Source: Candidatus Odinarchaeia archaeon
GTDB taxonomy: Archaea > Asgardarchaeota > Odinarchaeia > Odinarchaeales > Odinarchaeaceae
DNA length: 44,963 nt
Direction: 5' to 3'
Assembly: GCA_029856525.1 (NCBI GenBank)
Contig: JAHQXC010000001.1
Span: 1-44,963 of the forward strand
Below, piece by piece: positions 3,639-43,838 of this stretch. A program made the position numbers and the translations under genes. The notes under the pieces are model-generated. The model was not told where the DNA came from. It did no database searches and saw nothing but the letters and a program-made list of their open reading frames with translations. Positions within the stretch are counted from its first letter, which is position 1, and each line of letters opens with the position of its first letter.

Positions 3639-4331
3639 TTGACAGGAAAATTAAATACACCTATACCTACAGGTTTACCTAGTTTAGATTCTTTTTTAAA
3701 TGGTGGTTTAACGCCGAGTAAACTCTATCATATCTATGGGGCTTCAGGCAGCGGGAAGACTACTCTAGCGCTTCAGATAGTTAAAAATAACTTATATAAT
3801 AGTGGCCGCGTCATCTGGGTTGAAACTGAAAGAAAGAATTTTTTAAACAGGCTTACTATGATGCTATCTGAAGAGTTTAGAAGTAAACTCTCCGATATCA
3901 TTGTTTTTACACCTAACGATTTTGAAGAGCAGAGAATACTCGTAAATAAACTATCTGATTTTATCGCGCCTAGAATAAATCTACTAGTATTCGACACTAT
4001 CACAAATCTTTACAGTGTTTCACTACAGGAAAAGAGGGAGAATATTAGATTAAACAAGGAGATTAACAGACAAATAGCCTTGGTTAAATCAATCTGTTTT
4101 TCAAAGAATATAACCGCTATAATAGTTAACAATATTAGAATGCGAATGATCGGAGACGAATTTAAAACAGAACCTGTAGCATATAAGATAGTAACATACT
4201 GGGCTGATTTCAACATAGAGTTATCTAATCTCAATTTTAAACGAAAAAAATTAAATATAGTTTCTAAAGAAGGGGATAGGAGACTTAGCTTAATTTACGA
4301 ATTAACAGATAGAGGCGTTGAGCAGATATAG
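3639..4331 (+). CDS. RadB/KaiC-like RecA-superfamily ATPase
   Basis: 230 aa. Walker A is YGASGSGKTTLALQ and Walker B-like is LLVFDTI. About 230 aa with no N-terminal HhH domain, as in RadB paralogues. TTG start 3 nt after the preceding stop. Confidence 0.65.
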   Translation: MTGKLNTPIPTGLPSLDSFLNGGLTPSKLYHIYGASGSGKTTLALQIVKNNLYNSGRVIWVETERKNFLNRLTMMLSEEFRSKLSDIIVFTPNDFEEQRILVNKLSDFIAPRINLLVFDTITNLYSVSLQEKRENIRLNKEINRQIALVKSICFSKNITAIIVNNIRMRMIGDEFKTEPVAYKIVTYWADFNIELSNLNFKRKKLNIVSKEGDRRLSLIYELTDRGVEQI

Positions 4332-5898: not shown

Positions 5899-6828
5899 GT
5901 GCTAACACAGCTTACAGGAGTTGGACCGTCGATAGCTAAACGGCTTGCAGAATCCGGTTATAATAGTATAGAGGCTATCGCTGTAACAACAGCGGATGAG
6001 CTGGCTGCTGCTGTAGATGTTGGTAAGAGTACAGCTCAGAAAATAATAGAATCAGCCAGAGAACTTTTAAAAATAGGTTTTGAAACAGCGGATAATATAT
6101 ATGAGAAGAGGAAGAATATCGGTCGCATTACAACCGGGTCTAAAAATTTGGATAGCCTTATCGGCGGTGGGATTGAAACACAATCTATAACTGAGGTTTT
6201 CGGCCCTTTTAGATCAGGTAAAACACAGTTAGCTCATCAACTAGCGGTTTACGTTCAGTTACCTGTAGAGAAAGGTGGGCTGAACGGGAAAGCGTTATAT
6301 ATTGATTGCGAGGGGACTTTCAGACCTGAGAGAATTGTTCAAATGGCTTCTGCTTTAGACTTAGACCCTAAGATAGCTCTTAAAAATATTTGGTGTGCTA
6401 GAGCTTATAACTCTGATCATCAGATGTTGCTCTGTCAACAGGCTAGTGAGCTGATTAAAAAAGAGAATCTTAAGCTTATCGTTATCGATAGTATAACAAG
6501 CCATTTCAGAGCTGAGTATATTGGCAGGGAGATGTTGGCTAGAAGACAACAGAAATTAAATAAACACCTGCATATGCTTGAGAGAATCGCTGACATAGAG
6601 AATGTCGCTGTTTTAATCACTAACCAGGTTATGGCTAAACCGGATACTTTCTTCGGTGATCCTACTGAACCTGTCGGCGGCCATATATTAGCGCATGTAC
6701 CTCAAACAAGACTCTATCTTAGGAGAAGTAAAGGGAATAGAAGGATTTGCAGACTGGTAGACTCTCCATGGATGCCTGAAGGTGAGGCGGTTTTCGTCAT
6801 CACAGCTGAGGGGATACGTGACCCTTAG
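5899..6828 (+). CDS. radA: DNA repair and recombination protein RadA
   Basis: N-terminal HhH ([17 protein letters not shown]), Walker [10 protein letters not shown], Walker B LIVIDSI. 309 aa counted from the first canonical start (GTG); the reading frame is open upstream to 5794. Confidence 0.93.
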
Positions 6829-7497: not shown

Positions 7498-8760
7498 TTA
7501 TGAGAGTGTTACCTCAATTTCATCTTTGAATAATTCACTAAGGTTTTCAGATAGAGTTTTTAAATCCTTACTAATTTTACTGTTGAAATTCAAGATCTGT
7601 GTTTGTAATCTGTCCTCCTCTACTTTTTTATCTGCAAGCTGGTTTTTCAGCTCTTCGATTTTGAAGAGAAGCCCCTCTGATTTTTCATTAAAACCTTTTT
7701 CAGCGATGAACGCTTTTAATTTTTCTTTCGACTCTGTTAAAAATTTGGCTTTCTTATACAGTTCCTCTAAAAAATTATCTTGGAGGATTCTATTAATTTG
7801 CTTAATAGCCTTCTCGACTCTGTCTTTTTTTAAGTCTAATTCCTGGGATAACAGGCTCAACTGTAAGGTTTTCAGAATCTGCTTTAACATAGGCAGCTCC
7901 GCTGTTTCATCTAGGAATGTTAGAAAAGGCTCGGAGATGTAACGGTCTATTGCATTCCTCTGCTCCGTTGATAAGTCACCGAGTGCTTTAGATGAACTTT
8001 TGCTGAGCTTAGATAACGGTTTTAATATAGGATTTAATATTATGTTAAAACTTCTCCTCACATCATTTAAATCTTCATCTATTTGTGTATAATTTTTATA
8101 GACGCCTGTTGTCTTAAACTTTAAATAGTTTTCTTCAGCCTCCTTCAGCTGGTTTGCTAAATCCTCTAATTCAGCTTTTAATGATTCAAGTCTCTCTTGA
8201 AGTATTCTCTTCTCGTTTAGAGAATTATTTATAGCTTCAACAGCCTCTATTATCTTATCAACTCGTTCAATCTCTTTATACTCTTTTAGCAAAAACTGGT
8301 TTAATTTATCAGCTTGTTCCGCTAGTTTTCTTATATTGTAATCTAAATCTTTAAGCTCTGTTTTAAACCAGGGGCTTATTTTAGGTACTAGACGGCGGCC
8401 TAGCTCGTTAACGTTTTGAAAAAAAAGCTTTAACGATCCGGAGAGGTTCATTAAACTATTATAGCTGTATTCTTCTCCGATATTTATCTTACCGATGGAT
8501 TCTACTATCCCCTGGCTTAATTTCTCAGCGTTTTTAACAGCGACTTCATGATCTTTAAAATTATCTTCAACCGCTTTAAATGCATCTCTATCTTTACTAG
8601 TTAAAATTTTTTCGGCTGATGTTTTCACCTGGTTTAACAGTTCTGAGATTTTCTGATTTATCAGTCGCGCTTTAGCTTGAAGGGGATTATAGCGTTTTTC
8701 ATTTTTCCTATTAATATAGTCTTTAACCTCGTTTAATTTTAATGTAACCATAATTCTCAC
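7498..8760 (-). CDS. Coiled-coil protein of unknown function
   Basis: 420 aa, rich in K, E and L with long heptad-like stretches and no enzymatic motif. Its start overlaps the stop of the upstream gene by 4 nt. Confidence 0.6.
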   Translation of the reverse strand: MRIMVTLKLNEVKDYINRKNEKRYNPLQAKARLINQKISELLNQVKTSAEKILTSKDRDAFKAVEDNFKDHEVAVKNAEKLSQGIVESIGKINIGEEYSYNSLMNLSGSLKLFFQNVNELGRRLVPKISPWFKTELKDLDYNIRKLAEQADKLNQFLLKEYKEIERVDKIIEAVEAINNSLNEKRILQERLESLKAELEDLANQLKEAEENYLKFKTTGVYKNYTQIDEDLNDVRRSFNIILNPILKPLSKLSKSSSKALGDLSTEQRNAIDRYISEPFLTFLDETAELPMLKQILKTLQLSLLSQELDLKKDRVEKAIKQINRILQDNFLEELYKKAKFLTESKEKLKAFIAEKGFNEKSEGLLFKIEELKNQLADKKVEEDRLQTQILNFNSKISKDLKTLSENLSELFKDEIEVTLS

Positions 8761-16895: not shown

Positions 16896-21660
<4,765 letters not shown>

Positions 21661-21683
21661 TGGTTGACGGCCGCTATCTATTA

Positions 21684-21727
21684 CCGCTGGAATTGGCTGA
21701 TCTGTATAGCACCACATGTGTTGACCG
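21684..21727 (-). other. 5' leader half of the 16S processing stem
   Basis: The reverse complement shares a 14-nt and a 12-nt arm (CGGTCAACACATGT, ACAGATCAGCCA) with 20077..20115, separated by an unpaired centre. This is the layout of archaeal pre-rRNA bulge-helix-bulge stems. Confidence 0.7.
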
Positions 21728-21950
21728 TCATCAGGCTTGAATTCGCGATCCTTAAGGGACCGGTTTATTCAAGCCGTCATGATTTGAGCCCGCGTTCGGA
21801 TAAGCAACCTTTCATCCCATCGGTTTTTACCTTTGGTTTAGGTCGACGCCTTTGAACAACGGGCGTACACAGTAGATAATAGACGGTGAACGCCTTTATA
21901 CGGCTCCCGCCATACTTACTAATTGTTGAACGAATATTTAAATTAAACGC

Positions 21951-22034
21951 AACCGGTTTATTGTATTTAACCGGTTTCAACCATATCAAATTTTGATATG
22001 GTCCTATCAAAAGGATAGTACTACCGAAGTAGTA
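21951..22034. promoter_or_regulatory. Cluster of palindromes between the rRNA operon and tRNA-Ala
   Basis: Four elements:
- AACCGGTT twice, at 21951 and 21969
- CCATATCAAA-T-TTTGATATGG (21981..22001)
- CTATC-AAAAG-GATAG (22004..22018)
- TACTAC-CGAA-GTAGTA (22019..22034). Confidence 0.4.
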
Positions 22035-22147
22035 AAAAAATAAAGTCACAATCATATATTTAAATTTTTTGTGAGAGGCGGATAGTTGAGAAGAAGTGTT
22101 ACCGATAGGGTTAAAAATTTTTAGCTTTTTAATATATTTAACTTTTA

Positions 22148-22225
22148 GGGCGGGTAGTTCAGCCTGGAATGAACGCCTGACTTGCACTCAGGAGGCCGCG
22201 AGTTCAAATCTCGCCCCGTCCACCA
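22148..22225 (+). tRNA. tRNA-Ala (UGC), no intron, CCA encoded
   Basis: GGGCGGG/CCCGTCC acceptor stem with G3:U70, anticodon loop CTTGCAC, T arm GCGAG-TTCAAAT-CTCGC, followed by ACCA. Confidence 0.95.
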
Positions 22226-22998: not shown

Positions 22999-23451
22999 CT
23001 ATTTTTTCTTGAAAAAAAGCCAGTTTTTACTTGACTGCTCGCCACCTTTGAAACGAATTAAAACATACTCCCCTTTCATTCTCCGGCCGTCTAATTCAAA
23101 GTGAATTGAATCTGAACTGATTTTTTTAATAATTAATTTCCCCTTATCCCAAATATCAACAGTACCAGCCCCGTATTCACCTTCAGGTATCACTCCTGTG
23201 AAATCAGCGTAAGATAAAGGGTGATCTTCTGTTTGAACAGCTAGTCTTTTAACACCTAGCTCTAAAGGAGGGGGTTTAGGTAGAGCCCAGCTTTTTAATA
23301 CGCCGTCTATTTCCAGTCTTAAATCCCAGTGTAAATGTGTAGCGTGATGTTCTTGTATAACAAATATAGGAGTATCGGAGTGAGGGGTGTTATTCTCAGG
23401 CTCAGGTGTCTTTGTAAAATCTCTCTTCGATCTGTATTCTTCAAGCGCCAC
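22999..23451 (-). CDS. Stand-alone LigD-type 3'-phosphoesterase domain protein
   Basis: 150 aa. FVIQEHHATHLHWDLRLEIDGVLKSWALPK matches the LigD PE signature (FVVQKHxAxxLHYDFRLE..GvLkSWAvPKG). Confidence 0.8.
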   Translation of the reverse strand: MALEEYRSKRDFTKTPEPENNTPHSDTPIFVIQEHHATHLHWDLRLEIDGVLKSWALPKPPPLELGVKRLAVQTEDHPLSYADFTGVIPEGEYGAGTVDIWDKGKLIIKKISSDSIHFELDGRRMKGEYVLIRFKGGEQSSKNWLFFKKK

Positions 23452-29412: not shown

Positions 29413-30210
29413 TTAAATAAACTCTGTGAGTCGACTCGTTCTATAACGTTTAACTATCTTCATACATTCACGGGGATTCAAAATCTTAAACTCTAAACCA
29501 AGCTTATTAAGTAAAATTTCAGCGCTTTTCGTTATACTAGGGGCCGCAAGAATCCCTCTCATTTTTCTCCCTACAACAGGATAAGAATATGAATCTAAAT
29601 ATTTTTTAAGTTGTATAACCGATTCTCTCGTAGCTGGGGTTCTCTTCAACTCCACGATAACAGGATTACCTTCCTCATCGAAACCGTATACGTCGATGAA
29701 TCCTGGTTTAACATGCTTCTCAGATGATACGGGCTTAAATCCTTTGAATAAAATTTCAGGTTTCCTGAGAACCGCCTCCTGCATCTGCTCTTCAGAGGCA
29801 TCCATAATGAATTCAGCGTTATCTTTAATGAGGAGGGAGATAACTGAAAAAATTTTATTAAACTCTATAATAAGGCTTTCGCGCGGTCTCCGTCTAACCG
29901 CTTTCAAAAAGATTCTATTATCTTTCAGAAAAACGTGTATTAAATTTCCAGGCGGCTGCCAGTTTATCGGGGAGACACCTTTCTCCTGATGAATTAAAAC
30001 AGATTTATCCTTTTTAATAATGAGAAGACGTTCACCTGATCCTATACTAGAAGACGCTCTACCTATGTATTCTACACTGAAATCCCCTATTATTAAAATA
30101 GTATGATTCTTTGATAAAAACTCCTCTAAATAAGGGTAATATTCTTCTAAATTAGTTTTATTAATAATCTTTATTTTATCGTTATTAGTAGAAGAGAAGT
30201 TAACAGTCAT
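29413..30210 (-). CDS. nucS: Endonuclease NucS/EndoMS
   Basis: 265 aa. C-terminal RecB-like core FIDVYGFDEEGNPVIVELKR and the N-terminal DNA-binding half typical of NucS. Confidence 0.85.
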   Translation of the reverse strand: MTVNFSSTNNDKIKIINKTNLEEYYPYLEEFLSKNHTILIIGDFSVEYIGRASSSIGSGERLLIIKKDKSVLIHQEKGVSPINWQPPGNLIHVFLKDNRIFLKAVRRRPRESLIIEFNKIFSVISLLIKDNAEFIMDASEEQMQEAVLRKPEILFKGFKPVSSEKHVKPGFIDVYGFDEEGNPVIVELKRTPATRESVIQLKKYLDSYSYPVVGRKMRGILAAPSITKSAEILLNKLGLEFKILNPRECMKIVKRYRTSRLTEFI

Positions 30211-32142: not shown

Positions 32143-32409
32143 TCAAGTCTCGCTTTCAGTGTTATCCTCTCTACTATTCTTAGCGAATTCCTCTTGATTA
32201 AATTTTTTAACCCATTCTAGAAAGGCATTCGACCATATATTTGGGTCAAATAACGTGGGAGCTGTGAATGGAAGCGCTTTTTCAAACGACTCTATTAAAC
32301 CGGGGTTATCATCACCCTCCAATAATGGTTTACTAGAATCGATATTAGTAGCCTCTAAACTTTTCCCAGCGGATTCATCGCTCTTATTCTTCAAAAATTT
32401 ATTAGACAA
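32143..32409 (-). CDS. Small acidic hypothetical protein
   Basis: 88-aa ORF with no recognisable motif. Divergent from the Top6A-like gene. Confidence 0.35.
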   Translation of the reverse strand: MSNKFLKNKSDESAGKSLEATNIDSSKPLLEGDDNPGLIESFEKALPFTAPTLFDPNIWSNAFLEWVKKFNQEEFAKNSREDNTESET

Positions 32410-32541: not shown

Positions 32542-33567
32542 GTGAAGAGATTAAAGATTCATTTAAATTTAAAAAAAGTATACCGATTTTATAAAGGTGG
32601 TATATTGCAGCTTTTCCCTGGAACAAAAGAAGCTTGGCTAACTGTAATTAAAGAAAAAGTAGTTGAGTTAATTGATAGAATTAATAGAGGTAGGGTTTAT
32701 CTACCAGACCAGTTAAAAAATATTGATAAAAGGAAAATAATATATGTATTAGAGTTTATACTCGAAATAATTCGCGTGAATAGAAACGCTGTAATAGAGG
32801 ATATATTATACTCTCCTAAAGCGCGTGGATTATATAAAATCAATGATCGCGAGGAACTAGAGCTTATTTTAAATTATATTGAGGGAGTCTTGCAAGCGCC
32901 TAGAGAAGACTTCATGTTGTTTGAAGATATTCCAACACCTATCTACGGCGATCTTAAAATCGAATATTACTCTCCTTTAACTTCACATGATAAAATAATT
33001 AAGCTTAATGATAAAAAGAATATTCAGTTTATAGATCCGTTATTATATAAAATGAATTTCATAGATTGTAAAGCGGATAAAGTTTTAGTAACAGGATTCG
33101 ACTTCGAAAATTTAATAGAACATAAAGTCCCAGAGCAGCTTAACTGTATTCTTATAGGTATGGGAGCACATATACCTAGGTCTACTAGACACTTATTGAG
33201 AAGGTTAAATCTTGAATTAAATCTCCCTGTTTATATTTTAACAGAAGCGTCCCCCTTCGGTTTACTGCAGTCTATAAATCTTATTAAAGGAGCCTCGGAG
33301 ACGACTCCGCCCTTCCTTCAAAAATTTATAGTCAGCCATGCAATGTGGGTAGGAGTCTCTATAGGAGATATTTTAGAAGACTATAGTACGATACCTTTAA
33401 ACGAGGAGGATATCAGAATTTTAGATAAGATTAAAGATACTAATTTAGCTAGAATTCAACCATATAAGCAAGAATTAGAATTATACATTGAAAAAAAGGT
33501 TAAATCAGAATACGAACAGCTTAAAGAATTAGATGTAGTCAAATATATTTCTGCTAAAATACCGTGA
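32542..33567 (+). CDS. Top6A/Spo11-like protein with degenerate TOPRIM active site
   Basis: Collinear with Top6A. VLVTGFDFENL stands in place of vLvVEKdavF. GAHIPRSTRHLLRRLNLELNLPVYILTEASPFG stands in place of GqPdraTRrflrrL..el.lPvyiLtDaDPyG. IEDILYS stands in place of iRDlYY. Confidence 0.8.
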   Translation: MKRLKIHLNLKKVYRFYKGGILQLFPGTKEAWLTVIKEKVVELIDRINRGRVYLPDQLKNIDKRKIIYVLEFILEIIRVNRNAVIEDILYSPKARGLYKINDREELELILNYIEGVLQAPREDFMLFEDIPTPIYGDLKIEYYSPLTSHDKIIKLNDKKNIQFIDPLLYKMNFIDCKADKVLVTGFDFENLIEHKVPEQLNCILIGMGAHIPRSTRHLLRRLNLELNLPVYILTEASPFGLLQSINLIKGASETTPPFLQKFIVSHAMWVGVSIGDILEDYSTIPLNEEDIRILDKIKDTNLARIQPYKQELELYIEKKVKSEYEQLKELDVVKYISAKIP

Positions 33568-33801: not shown

Positions 33802-34143
33802 CTAGATTACACATGAACCTGTCTCAAGATATCGTATATATTTAACCTCATCTCTTTCCATCAACTTGTAAATCTGTTTTTTATTAGCGTAAACTATCGC
33901 GGATACAAGCGGCTTACTCCAACTACCAGGCACGGGTTTAACACCGGTTTTTTCTAATGCGACTAGAAGATCCTCTAAAGAGTTTTTACCTACAACTCTG
34001 ACGCGGAAACACCTCTCTTCGTCGCTTAAATTAAGCATCTCCTCGAATTCAGGTGATATTTTACGTGAACGCTGGCTTTTAGAATATTCATCATATATTT
34101 TTCTAGCAGTATGAGAGTCTTTATCAATGATATGTTTAGGCAT
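33802..34143 (-). CDS. Hypothetical protein
   Basis: 113-aa ORF downstream of, and co-oriented with, the PLD-like gene. No confident motif. Confidence 0.45.
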   Translation of the reverse strand: MPKHIIDKDSHTARKIYDEYSKSQRSRKISPEFEEMLNLSDEERCFRVRVVGKNSLEDLLVALEKTGVKPVPGSWSKPLVSAIVYANKKQIYKLMERDEVKYIRYLETGSCVI

Positions 34144-34274: not shown

Positions 34275-34730
34275 TTACGAGGTTGATGCGGTTTTCCTCT
34301 TCTTATCTATTATACGTATAAGCTTTTCCGCGTACTCTAGCGCCTTATTCACTAAAGCCTTATCATTAGAGTATATGCCTATATCAAAGAACCTGTCGTT
34401 AGCGGTCTTCGAGAGATCCGCGCTCGAAGTTAATAATTCATCTTGATCTCTGATTATCACATGTCCGTTAACTAGAGGATCGGTGAAAATTTTACAACCG
34501 ATTTTTTCAAAGAAAGCCAAGGCTTTTCTATGCGATGAGTCTTTATCCTCCGGCCTTGTAACTATATATACTTCCACACCGTTAATGCGAAGCTGATTTA
34601 TTTTCTCCAGTAGGTGTTCAATATTACTTAGATTAGGTTGAATTAAAACAAGTGTTTTTTTAGCAGCGATAATTAAATCCACGGAGGCATAAAACAGTTC
34701 ACTATCTGTGATAAACCGGTTTTTAGACAT
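34275..34730 (-). CDS. Small PLD/Nuc-fold protein with atypical HKD motif
   Basis: 151 aa. The layout AAKKTLVLIQPNLS ... NGVEVYIVTRPED ... NGHVIIRDQDELLTSSADLS follows single-domain PLD nucleases, but the HxK lysine position is Ile and GSxN reads SSAD. Confidence 0.6.
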   Translation of the reverse strand: MSKNRFITDSELFYASVDLIIAAKKTLVLIQPNLSNIEHLLEKINQLRINGVEVYIVTRPEDKDSSHRKALAFFEKIGCKIFTDPLVNGHVIIRDQDELLTSSADLSKTANDRFFDIGIYSNDKALVNKALEYAEKLIRIIDKKRKTASTS

Positions 34731-41564: not shown

Positions 41565-43838
41565 CTATTCTTCATATTCCGTGTTTAAAACTTCTTTAAT
41601 CATCTTTACTTTCTTTTCACCGATTCCGCTAACCTTTTTCAAATCTTCTTCACTAGAATTAAAAATGTTTATAGGTTTTTTAAACAATTTAAGTAATCTT
41701 CTAGCTAACACTTGATTTATCTGCGGTAGACTTGAGATCAATCTCTCCTGGATTTCGCTTATAGTCACAGGAAGCTTACCTTTTTTTAACGAAAAAGAGG
41801 AGTCGCGAATTGATTGCCGGCGGCTGACTACCGCGTAGATAAGCTTAGCTGTATCATCAGCATCTCTAGACCATAAAATTGGGAGATTATAATCTACTAC
41901 TATACTAGCTAAAGCACCTCTTATAGCGTTTTGGTGAATATTCCTTAAACCGTATAGGCTTTCACCTTCTATTATTAGAATCGGATTCTCATAGACTTCT
42001 TTTAATTTTATAATCTGATCGAATAAACGTTTATCTATCAAAGATTGGAGAAAGTCGGATGCTGTTTTTCTCTCCACAGCCACATCTTCAGATATTACAT
42101 AGTCGCCTGCTGGAAGCTGCTCTGGGATTATACTAACACCCATCTCGGATAACAGTCTTGGTATAGGAGATGAGAGCTCCCTGTGATCGACTATTACTTT
42201 ATAACAGGGCTCATCTCGTTCATTCTCCAAGTATTGTTCAAGAGTAGGCTGAGCGCGCGTTGCATTCACACTTACAGGGGTGATATGTTTAATCAGATGT
42301 TTTAAACTCTTCTGCCTATTGGCTACCATCCAGTAATAGCTTTCATCCCTGGTGCCTTTAGTTAAAAGTATAAGAACATTCCCGGGGGAGCGGCGGCCTG
42401 TTCTACCCTTTCTTTGAATGTAACGGATTACACTAGGAGCGAAATCATAGAAAACAACGAGATCGCATTCACTGATATCTAAACCCTCCTCTGCAACGCT
42501 TGTAGCTACTAAAACATTGAGGGCGCCGGCTTTAAACTCTTCTAATATTTGTAATTGCTCCTTCTGGGATATCCCTTTATCACCCTCCCTGGTAGCCTGT
42601 CCGATAAATCTTTTAGCTTTAATATTAGAGCATCCGTTAAGGGTGTCAGCTAAAAGCATAGCTAGCTCCCTATACTGGCAGAATACTATTACACGTGAGT
42701 TTGGGTGTGTTGAAAGCCACTCAGATACTTTTTTAACAATATAATGAAATTTAGGATGGATTAAACCTTCAGCTAATAGTTTCTGAACATTTTCACGAAG
42801 TTTTCTAATAACAGGGTTTAATAACAAGTTTCTAATCGCACGTGAAGAACCGGATCTAGATCCTTCTTTCTCTAATTTATCGAAGTATTTTTTCAAAACC
42901 ACTAAGCCCTGAGTTTCAACAAGCTCAAGAGCGTGAGATAAGCGGATTGACTCAGCTAAAATAGAGGAGGCTGCTAATAAAATTTGGTCGCCGGGCTCAC
43001 GTTTATCGATCAACTCTCTTAGTTTAGCTTGCAGTTCCAGCATTGTTTTTTTACTTGTAAATTTTTTAAAATCTATTGAAATAAAATTGTTTTTAACTAG
43101 AAAGTCATAATTACCTTTTAGAATAGCCTCAAGCTCTTTTTTTATACTTGAAATTTCTTCAGGCAGTTCTAGTTTAATCCAAGATATATTTGTAGAGACT
43201 ATGTAAGGTTTCACATCAATTGAAGACTCATCACGAGCCTCTATGTTAGATATGTAAAGATTACGACAGACTTCGTTAATTTTCTCAGGTGAAGAACCGG
43301 GAGACGCTGTGAGGGCTAAAATCAGAGGGTGTTTCGAATTCTCCATGTATATTTTAGCTATATTCGGATAAGGGTAGTCTCCTACGCTTCTATGAGCTTC
43401 ATCGAATATTATTAAAGACACATCTGTTATCGTGGTTCTCTTAAATAAGAGATCGTTTTCTAATATTTGAGGCGTTGTGAAGAAAATAATCCCTTTTTTC
43501 CATAGTTCAGCTCTCTCAGACGGTTTTACCTCTCCGGTTAAAGCGATAAGCTTCTCCTCCGGTATATTCATAACTGATTTAAATGTGCTATAATGCTGCA
43601 TCACTAAAGGTTTAGTCGGAGCTAGAAAAATACATTTAGTGTCTGGGAGTTTACTAAGTCTATGAGCGGCGAGCAGAGCGGCGATAAGCGTCTTCCCTAA
43701 ACCAGTGGGCAATATGACTAAAGTATTCTTCTCAGAAGCCGAGGCTAGAATCGTCTCCTGGTAGAGTCTTCTCTCAATAGAATGCTTCTTAATTAGTGGG
43801 TGATCTAAATAGAGGTTGGAATTAGACATTAAGCTCAT
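41565..43838 (-). CDS. hef: Hef helicase-nuclease (FANCM/XPF family, full length)
   Basis: 757 aa. SF2 helicase with PTGLGKT and FDEAH motifs, ERCC4 nuclease with GDYVISEDVAVERKTASDF, and a C-terminal HhH2 (VSGIGEKKVKMI). Confidence 0.9.
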   Translation of the reverse strand: MSLMSNSNLYLDHPLIKKHSIERRLYQETILASASEKNTLVILPTGLGKTLIAALLAAHRLSKLPDTKCIFLAPTKPLVMQHYSTFKSVMNIPEEKLIALTGEVKPSERAELWKKGIIFFTTPQILENDLLFKRTTITDVSLIIFDEAHRSVGDYPYPNIAKIYMENSKHPLILALTASPGSSPEKINEVCRNLYISNIEARDESSIDVKPYIVSTNISWIKLELPEEISSIKKELEAILKGNYDFLVKNNFISIDFKKFTSKKTMLELQAKLRELIDKREPGDQILLAASSILAESIRLSHALELVETQGLVVLKKYFDKLEKEGSRSGSSRAIRNLLLNPVIRKLRENVQKLLAEGLIHPKFHYIVKKVSEWLSTHPNSRVIVFCQYRELAMLLADTLNGCSNIKAKRFIGQATREGDKGISQKEQLQILEEFKAGALNVLVATSVAEEGLDISECDLVVFYDFAPSVIRYIQRKGRTGRRSPGNVLILLTKGTRDESYYWMVANRQKSLKHLIKHITPVSVNATRAQPTLEQYLENERDEPCYKVIVDHRELSSPIPRLLSEMGVSIIPEQLPAGDYVISEDVAVERKTASDFLQSLIDKRLFDQIIKLKEVYENPILIIEGESLYGLRNIHQNAIRGALASIVVDYNLPILWSRDADDTAKLIYAVVSRRQSIRDSSFSLKKGKLPVTISEIQERLISSLPQINQVLARRLLKLFKKPINIFNSSEEDLKKVSGIGEKKVKMIKEVLNTEYEE

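Follow-up and report, generated by a model that had tools for sequence, protein, structure and literature searches.

A conserved, Odinarchaeia-specific relative of topoisomerase VI subunit A predicted to be a pseudoenzyme

Why would an archaeal lineage keep a protein with the fold of topoisomerase VI subunit A (Top6A) whose catalytic residues have been exchanged and which has no B subunit encoded beside it? The question is raised by a gene on contig JAHQXC010000001.1 of a Candidatus Odinarchaeia archaeon (assembly GCA_029856525.1), of which we analysed positions 1 to 44,963 of the forward strand, hereafter the window. A first-pass annotation of this DNA, made from the letters and their open reading frames (ORFs), described the product of an ORF at 32542-33567 as an orphan paralogue of Top6A/Spo11 with a dismantled Toprim metal site, and all three peptide strings that it quoted are present in that ORF. 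We find that the protein is a conserved, Odinarchaeia-specific member of the Top6A family and, as predicted from its sequence, a pseudoenzyme. Below we set out its homology and altered active site, its distribution relative to the canonical enzyme, and the roles that such a protein could have.

A Top6A homologue with altered catalytic positions

The window protein is a homologue of the Top6A/Spo11 superfamily, with a similarity far beyond chance. Residues are numbered here on a 320-amino-acid (aa) form with a TTG start, justified below, unless the 341-aa form is named. The C-terminal part, at nucleotides 33103-33537 on the plus strand, matches the Pfam family for the Top6A/Spo11 Toprim domain (PF21180, 1.6e-22, residues 188-332 of the 341-aa form), and NCBIfam Top6A models give the protein 68-121 bits. 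A phmmer search against the PDB returned 1D3Y at 2.4e-16, with 1D3Y, 2ZBK and 2Q2E together spanning 2e-16 to 6e-12. When a profile of nine family members was compared with one of 31 canonical Top6A proteins using hhalign, the two aligned over 263 columns at 35% identity with a probability of 100% (E 1.4e-44). An AlphaFold2 (AF2) model built from a 42-sequence alignment (predicted local distance difference test score 88.9, predicted template modelling score 0.86) had as its best Foldseek match in the PDB the M. mazei Top6A chain 9o0g_A of entry 9O0G (E 2.8e-18, TMq 0.81). The significant PDB matches of the model were Top6A and Spo11 chains only, and no significant match was found among the predicted viral structures of BFVD. 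The collinearity with Top6A/Spo11 that the first-pass annotation had described is thus recovered at the profile and structure level, by the very kinds of search that it had proposed.

The longest ORF called on the window at this locus, 32542-33567 on the plus strand, opens with GTG and encodes the 341-aa product of the earlier description. That ORF exists, but its product is probably shorter. The starts of the orthologues all fall 21 codons downstream of the GTG, at a TTG or GTG codon where the sequence reads MQFFPGT, and in most orthologues the upstream frame is stopped within 30 codons. A Shine-Dalgarno-like GGTGGT, read from the sequence at 32596-32601 (plus strand), lies 3 nt before the TTG, and GGTGG or GGTGA stands at the equivalent place in eight of nine loci; in the exception, L011, the called start is a TTG further upstream. 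Because of the orthologue starts, the conserved GGTGG box and the upstream stops, the TTG at 32605 is most likely the true start and the annotated GTG wrong, which would give a coding sequence of 32605-33567 (plus strand, stop included) and a product of 320 aa. The orthologues are 320-321 aa long, or 325-326 aa in two Joint Genome Institute (JGI) gene calls.

Toward the N-terminus the resemblance to canonical Top6A fades. A degenerate winged-helix/5Y-CAP region at 32731-32934 (plus strand) was aligned to canonical winged-helix domains by hhalign. The Pfam model for this part of Top6A, PF04406 (TP6A_N), gave no match at E<=10 in the window protein or at E<=0.01 in the orthologues P0004 and P0008, and it scores 59-67 bits in canonical Odinarchaeial Top6A. 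On the NCBIfam Top6A equivalog model the window protein reaches 121 bits against a cut-off of 424, and the paralogues as a group 108-121 bits against 385-390 for canonical Odinarchaeial proteins, although the cut-off itself is a weak criterion since the canonical proteins miss it too. The first 42 residues (32605-32730, plus strand) carry an invariant FPGTxEAW and a predicted long helix at residues 8-27 (DSSP of the AF2 model). They align to no canonical N-terminus: the hhalign alignment begins at residue 43, and those of phmmer and NCBIfam at about residue 44. In canonical Top6A the same region forms a helix and strands that dock onto Top6B (PMC7671362; PMC13040014), and Asgard long-form Top6A has a winged helix-turn-helix (wHTH) extension in its N-terminal region.

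We then considered the residues that perform cleavage. In the 2026 cryo-electron microscopy study of M. mazei topoisomerase VI (topo VI), the cleavage apparatus comprises Y106, an 'electrostatic clasp' of R102 and E342, an acidic tetrad of E202, D254, D256 and E342, and minor-groove loops at 146-148 and 227-229 (PMC13040014); E342, in the T2BI box, is both the clasp residue and the fourth acid (PMC7671362; PMC13040014). These positions were mapped by phmmer, MAFFT and hhalign, and the three alignments were concordant. The stretch E65-D-I-L-Y69 (32797-32811, plus strand) maps to R102 and Y106. The Arg equivalent is E65, a Glu in 14/14 family members, so that the reported loss of the invariant Arg extends to the whole family. 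The Tyr equivalent is Y69, and here the earlier statement that the Tyr is kept is true of the window protein and of 13/14 family sequences, though the residue is not invariant, being Phe in the orthologue P0007. The site expected for the metal-binding Glu, at the end of the first Toprim strand, is V162-T163-G164 (33088-33096, plus strand), where a KVLVTG strand is followed by a two-residue deletion and the family reads G, S or T. The aligners place E202 on V162, on G164 or in a gap, and none of these placements holds an acidic residue. The first-pass annotation was therefore right that the Glu is gone, but it had read a Gly in its place, and the residue may have been deleted and not substituted.

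The remaining elements of the site are altered as well. The place of the DxD motif is taken by E214-A-S216 (33244-33252, plus strand): the D254 equivalent, E214, is D or E in the family and the D256 equivalent, S216, is S or T, giving a family pattern of [D/E]-x-[S/T]. A T2BI box remnant, K300-S-E302 (33502-33510, plus strand), lies in a region that reads KSEYEQL; its Lys is invariant in the family, and the E342 equivalent is E302 in the window protein and E, G, T or S across the family. In the motif III remnant GMGAHIPRSTR (33157-33189, plus strand), R192 and R195 are kept and are invariant in paralogues and canonical proteins alike, and the KGQ loop at 227-229 has become a G-A-H that varies within the family, so that KGQP reads GAHI. 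The ExS in place of DxD and the loss of GQPD were both described correctly at first pass. The other minor-groove loop, 146-148, is where the phmmer alignment to 2q2e_A puts the family-invariant D108-I109-P110 (32926-32934, plus strand).

How unusual is this pattern? In a census of the 14 Odinarchaeial family members and 280 other Top6A relatives, the combination R-Y-E-D-D was found in essentially every full-length protein among the relatives, and all 14 Odinarchaeial sequences read E-[Y/F]-[G/S/T]-[D/E]-[S/T]. The other exceptions were truncated fragments, the intein fragment P0052, DxN variants (the motif reported for SPO11-2), the single-site variants P0062, P0099 and P0130, and an oddity, P0122. 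Essentially every protein in published surveys of the family, archaeal topo VI and meiotic Spo11 included, has the Tyr and Arg together with the Mg2+ site (E and DxD), the sole exception noted being DxN in SPO11-2. Brinkmeier et al. 2022 list each TopoVIA and Spo11 group as having the catalytic Tyr, Mg2+ binding, the T2BI box and a domain that interacts with B. With no acid at the Toprim Glu position in any of the three alignments and the loss common to all 14 members, the dismantled site described at first pass is a property of the family, and the DNA-cleavage chemistry has very probably been lost. A further exception in the census, P0093 (396 aa), has L, H and Q in the Arg, Tyr and Glu columns and keeps D-P-D; it may be a second, unrelated inactive Top6A derivative. 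In several Asgard/TACK-related Top6A genes (P0019, P0022, P0052) a large intein interrupts the Toprim domain, P0052 being a C-extein fragment with its junction between ...THN and CGGMF...

Could the family still be enzymatic by another chemistry? A metal-independent Tyr helped by Arg, Lys or His, or a new acidic site formed from E107/D108, D158 and E168, can be imagined. The Tyr is retained in most members, purifying selection is strong, and the family has many invariant charged residues, including R60, K72, R100, R192, R195, R199, R200, H245 and K300. We nevertheless regard such an activity as quite unlikely, given the Phe at the Tyr position in one orthologue, the Glu that replaces the Arg beside the Tyr, and the dependence of all known Toprim and 5Y-CAP enzymes on the acidic cluster (PMC11302465; PMC7671362).

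Distribution, selection and the canonical enzyme

A search of 5.8 billion clustered proteins, with a full HMMER pass over 1.84 billion representatives, yielded a family of 14 sequences, which fall into nine clusters at 90% identity and have 52-83% identity with the window protein. Members were found only in Odinarchaeia or in metagenome-assembled genomes (MAGs) that are unnamed or probably mislabelled. A scan of GTDB genomes showed two further Odinarchaeota genomes with a family member, and a scan of JGI metagenomes gave no additional ones. Gene order is the same in every locus: ThiC (minus strand), a small acidic ORF (minus), the Top6A-like gene (plus), a 113-aa ORF (minus) and a PLD-like gene (minus). 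The survey of related genomes suggested at first pass thus yields both orthologues and constant neighbours. The window as a whole is almost entirely syntenic with CP091871.1, the closed chromosome of Candidatus Odinarchaeum yellowstonii LCB_4, with neighbouring proteins 75-96% identical to those of LCB_4.

These genes show the marks of selection. All nine orthologous ORFs examined are intact, the ratio of nonsynonymous to synonymous substitution rates (dN/dS) is 0.09-0.19 in pairs whose synonymous sites are not saturated, and divergence of the Top6A-like protein between genomes is similar to that of the neighbouring NucS and NUDIX genes, which together argue for a functional gene and not a relic. 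Neighbour joining gave the family as a single clade (100/100), borne on a long stem among the Asgard/TACK-type Top6A proteins and apart from PF20768-type ones; the long family branch is attracted to other long branches, and we limit the claim to nesting within Asgard/TACK-type Top6A. The best profile score was that of the Odinarchaeial long-form Top6A P0171, at 183 bits, all others scoring 166 bits or less. The family probably arose by a duplication in Odinarchaeia or at the base of the class, and then diverged fast.

An origin from a mobile element or defence system, as a stand-alone A subunit resembling Mini-A or JetD/MksG, or a decaying pseudogene, is hardly credible. What recalls Mini-A, the stand-alone viral protein described by Takahashi et al. 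2020, is the size and isolation of the paralogue: about 320 aa against about 300 aa, 5Y-CAP and Toprim domains only, no neighbouring B subunit and an N-terminus without the canonical part that interacts with B (PMC7671362). Mini-A differs in keeping the Tyr, Arg, E and DxDxxG and a WELDAL T2BI box, in its (pro)viral location and in forming a clade of its own (PMC7671362). We rejected it as a match for the paralogue, in which the Arg, Glu and second Asp are missing and the T2BI region reads KSEYEQL, and which is chromosomal and has no match in PHROG or BFVD. Topo VIII, a fused or split B-A protein of plasmids with a Bergerat fold, an RVELNAM box and its catalytic residues kept (PMC7671362), was rejected too: the paralogue is a single, chromosomal, 320-aa A-like protein without a GHKL domain. 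The third candidate considered was JetD/MksG. These nucleases cleave DNA by hydrolysis, with an intact Toprim metal site and no catalytic Tyr, the opposite pattern to that of the paralogue. They share with it a relationship to Top6A and a repurposing outside topoisomerases, within Wadjet and MksBEFG, as described in PMC13040014. The acidic site of the paralogue is lost, and there is no PADLOC match, so this candidate was set aside as well. More generally, the Top6A-like protein has no match in PHROG, PADLOC or BFVD that would mark it as part of a mobile element or defence system, its nearest relatives are chromosomal Asgard Top6A proteins, its gene stands in a conserved housekeeping context in every genome, and the GC content of the gene is like that of its surroundings. 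Decay into a pseudogene is excluded by the intact ORFs and a dN/dS of about 0.1-0.2.

If the protein is inactive, where is the topoisomerase of the cell? Neither a Top6B (GHKL/transducer) nor a second Top6A is encoded in the window, and no top6B lies beside the paralogue in eight orthologous loci (flanks of up to 10 kb, as far as each contig reaches), which extends to the family the earlier remark that no Top6B gene is adjacent. Canonical genes are found elsewhere in the lineage. In the Odinarchaeia MAG GCA_054383415.1 canonical top6B-top6A operons occur twice: one pairs P0171 with a Top6B of 525 aa, the other P0312 with one of 496 aa. This is in keeping with a published account of 'multiple Top6A/B gene pairs' in Asgard lineages (PMC12680538). 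Within that MAG the long-form Top6A is a 448-aa protein with an N-terminal wHTH extension (L005/L006 10001-11347), and the short form is a 357-aa protein whose gene adjoins eIF-1A, RIO1 and KH genes (L016 4001-5074). Another canonical Top6A, P0204, is adjoined by a Top6B called as a 245-aa transducer-only fragment (L012 3046-3783), probably through a frameshift or assembly error. For Ca. O. yellowstonii, whose LCB_4 chromosome carries the degenerate copy P0004, Allen & Maxwell 2024 collected a topo VI: its Top6B has a complete GHKL domain with all ATP-binding boxes, each B-possessing organism in their set retains a 'corresponding topo VI-A', and the key winged-helix domain and Toprim residues are present in all members except for DxN in SPO11-2 (PMC11302465). 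Because the members of that set keep all key residues, the topo VI-A of Ca. O. yellowstonii among them is not P0004. The canonical Top6A of LCB_4 is not among the 120 best matches to P0171. Gyrase is reported to be absent from Odinarchaeota (PMC9348778), so topo VI is expected to be their essential type II enzyme.

Could the family instead be the sole Top6A of the organism, working with a Top6B from elsewhere? No canonical Top6A was retrieved directly from the genome of the contig or from CP091871.1, as this possibility would have it. Set against it are the loss of the Arg, the Glu, the second Asp and any detectable Top6B-docking region, the canonical pairs in Odinarchaeia MAGs, the published Ca. 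O. yellowstonii topo VI-A, which is said to have all key residues (PMC11302465), and the tandem arrangement that archaeal top6A and top6B normally have (PMC7671362). It is very unlikely that the paralogue is the only Top6A of the cell. The status of an extra copy that the first-pass annotation had assumed is supported by the canonical operons in Odinarchaeia MAGs together with the published canonical topo VI in Ca. O. yellowstonii, the species that holds P0004.

Possible roles of the paralogue

Our preferred reading, to which we give a probability of roughly 0.45, is that the paralogue acts as a Top6B-independent, non-cleaving, Top6A-like homodimer that may bind or bend DNA. An Asgard/TACK-type Top6A would have been duplicated at or before the base of Odinarchaeia, and the copy would have been inherited vertically and then lost its cleavage chemistry. 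The paralogue keeps the winged-helix and Toprim fold, which it has in common with canonical Asgard-type Top6A (P0171 and P0312; M. mazei 2Q2E and 9O0G) along with the motifs PREDF, IYGxLxIEY, CKADKV and PRSTRxLxRRLxxELxLPVYI, as well as the invariant D-I-P loop and the channel residues R100, R192, R195, R200 and K300, basic residues that are universal in canonical proteins. Gone are the Arg four residues before the Tyr, the metal-binding Glu of the Toprim domain, the second aspartate of DxD, a clasp Glu that holds across the family, the KGQ loop and the Top6B-docking N-terminus. Compared with canonical Top6A, the paralogue is also without the helix and strands of the N-terminal region, the Asgard wHTH extension and the top6B operon, and it is shorter (320 aa against 357-448 aa). 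The homodimer would bind, and perhaps bend, duplex DNA without Top6B and without cutting, the real topoisomerase VI of the cell being made from a canonical top6B-top6A operon elsewhere.

Several features argue for parts of this scenario. Conservation of the fold, the channel arginines and the D-I-P loop suggests that the architecture of the DNA channel still matters, and from the retained basic residues we infer that the paralogue may bind DNA. The replacement of the Top6B-docking end in a gene never linked to top6B suggests a protein that works without the ATPase. The clasp of canonical Top6A spans the dimer interface, the winged-helix Arg from one subunit holding the Toprim Glu of its partner (PMC7671362; PMC13040014). 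The Toprim pocket of the paralogue has lost three of its four acids, and in a homodimer the Glu that stands in place of the Arg would dock into this de-acidified pocket, whereas in a heterodimer with canonical Top6A it would face the full acidic tetrad. The Arg-to-Glu change and the loss of acids from the paralogue's own pocket thus fit a homodimer better than a canonical pairing, and on these grounds the paralogue may homodimerise.

Dead paralogues often regulate active relatives, and the paralogue could instead join a canonical Top6A in a regulatory heterodimer, an asymmetric gate with at most one competent centre that would serve as a nickase or as a dominant-negative brake on topo VI. This is possible, if doubtful. 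The active site is bipartite, made of the Tyr of one subunit and the Toprim domain of the other (PMC13040014), and a Tyr in 13/14 members whose own metal site is gone is what would be expected if only the Tyr half were used; a canonical Top6A also exists in the lineage. The dissymmetric SPO11-1/SPO11-2 pair of plants, in which SPO11-2 has DxN, is a precedent (PMC11302465). Like the paralogue, the SPO11-2 of plants and protists belongs to the Top6A family, departs from the usual metal motif and occurs alongside a canonical paralogue (PMC11302465); unlike it, SPO11-2 has a single change, DxD to DxN, with the Arg, Tyr and Glu kept, and is catalytically required, whereas four or five catalytic or control residues are lost in the paralogue. 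In a heterodimer, moreover, the invariant Glu for Arg would confront the acidic tetrad of the partner, the Tyr is Phe in one orthologue, only one B subunit would be recruited by a dimer with one Top6B-docking N-terminus missing, and the gene is unlinked to top6A and top6B in every genome examined. More specifically, the Tyr of the paralogue might meet the metal site of the partner while its dead Toprim domain disables the Tyr of the partner, producing a nickase or a throttled topo VI; we consider this half-dead gate unlikely. A further parallel for a dead relative kept by selection is the AdoMetDC prozyme of trypanosomes, which is likewise conserved and selected with its catalytic residues lost (PMC5201418).

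Several observations weigh against the DNA-binding homodimer as we have drawn it. The Tyr is kept in 13/14 members and might still matter, perhaps as one half of an active site shared with a canonical subunit. Basic residues universal in canonical proteins are lost at the equivalents of R65, R110, R169 and R272, and the isoelectric point is 5.6-6.3 in most paralogues against 8.7-9.3 in Odinarchaeial canonical Top6A, a mild acidity that weakens a simple DNA-binding reading. Finally, the assemblies identified for the canonical Top6A proteins (P0171, P0312, P0204, P0205 and P0010) and for the paralogues (P0001 and P0004-P0009) do not overlap; co-occurrence of the paralogue with a canonical pair rests on PMC11302465 and the location of P0004, both concerning Ca. 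O. yellowstonii, and is presumed for the genome of the contig.

Genomic surroundings and significance

The genes next to the paralogue are as constant as the paralogue itself. Divergent from it, at 32143-32409 on the minus strand, lies the small acidic ORF, which encodes 58-88 aa in the orthologues and is adjacent in every locus; its N-terminus is variable and its C-terminal DPNIWxDAFLEW[VI]KK is kept in 7/7 loci compared. The ORF may encode a partner, or its position may reflect synteny alone. Convergent with the paralogue, and again adjacent in every locus, is the gene for the 113-aa protein (33802-34143, minus strand), which is 90% identical to its LCB_4 orthologue, better conserved there than the Top6A-like protein, and has no match in Pfam, PDB, PHROG or PADLOC. 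Beyond it, at 34275-34730 on the minus strand, the 151-aa PLD-like protein (PF13091) has H, R or K at the histidine of the HKD motif across orthologues, with no Lys two residues on. Its only PADLOC matches are weak, DrmC-like ones, and it too may have an enzyme fold that no longer catalyses. Because the whole 20-kb region is syntenic across Odinarchaeia, the adjacency of the small ORF, the 113-aa ORF and the PLD-like gene is indistinguishable from plain synteny, and we set the neighbourhood aside as a clue to function.

The wider window encodes an rRNA operon, RNase P RNA, an A-type ATPase, NucS, ThiC, CTP synthase, XPD, RadA and Hef. Its contents are archaeal, and the near-complete synteny with LCB_4 marks the source as an Odinarchaeon and hence an Asgard archaeon. 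Repair and recombination genes are abundant, namely XPD, a KaiC/RadA-like ATPase, RadA, a LigD 3'-phosphoesterase domain, NucS and Hef (1007-2956, 3639-4331, 5899-6828, 22999-23451, 29413-30210 and 41565-43838); given the synteny across genomes, this richness may be a coincidence. The 16S-23S rRNA operon (16906-22225, minus strand) has a GC content of 55-57% against about 35-40% for the genome. A high-GC rRNA operon in a lower-GC genome is typical of thermophiles. The only tRNA, tRNA-Ala(TGC) at 22148-22225, lies outside the 16S-23S spacer on the opposite strand, and no 5S rRNA was found near the operon. A 420-aa ORF at 7498-8760 (minus strand) has no Pfam match at E<=1e-4.

We found no paper that describes a Top6A paralogue with a dismantled metal site, and the first-pass annotation had likewise known of none in archaea. 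A 2025 study of the Asgard replisome reports divergent extra Top6A copies as A/B pairs related to those of other archaea (PMC12680538), and the present clade might sit unremarked in one of its trees. The multiplication of Top6A/B genes in Asgard archaea has lately been connected with the evolution of the replisome. Confinement of the family to Odinarchaeia gives it little direct bearing on the origin of Spo11. Automated annotation gives such proteins the name 'DNA topoisomerase VI subunit A', the JGI label of P0007 being an instance; these paralogues are to be left out of counts of type II topoisomerases and out of marker-gene phylogenies.

If the half-dead gate were true, a type IIB topoisomerase that cuts both strands would have become a nickase of single strands or been throttled; the gate would be an archaeal counterpart of the SPO11-1/SPO11-2 dimer and, as a type IIB DNA gate that is 'half-dead', the first to occur naturally. 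Having shed its cleavage apparatus and Top6B-docking end while staying conserved under selection, the paralogue shows that the Top6A scaffold can serve a purpose other than DNA cutting. The family is a natural separation-of-function variant, with which the contributions of the parts of the fold to DNA binding and bending, to dimerisation and to control of the real enzyme could be probed.

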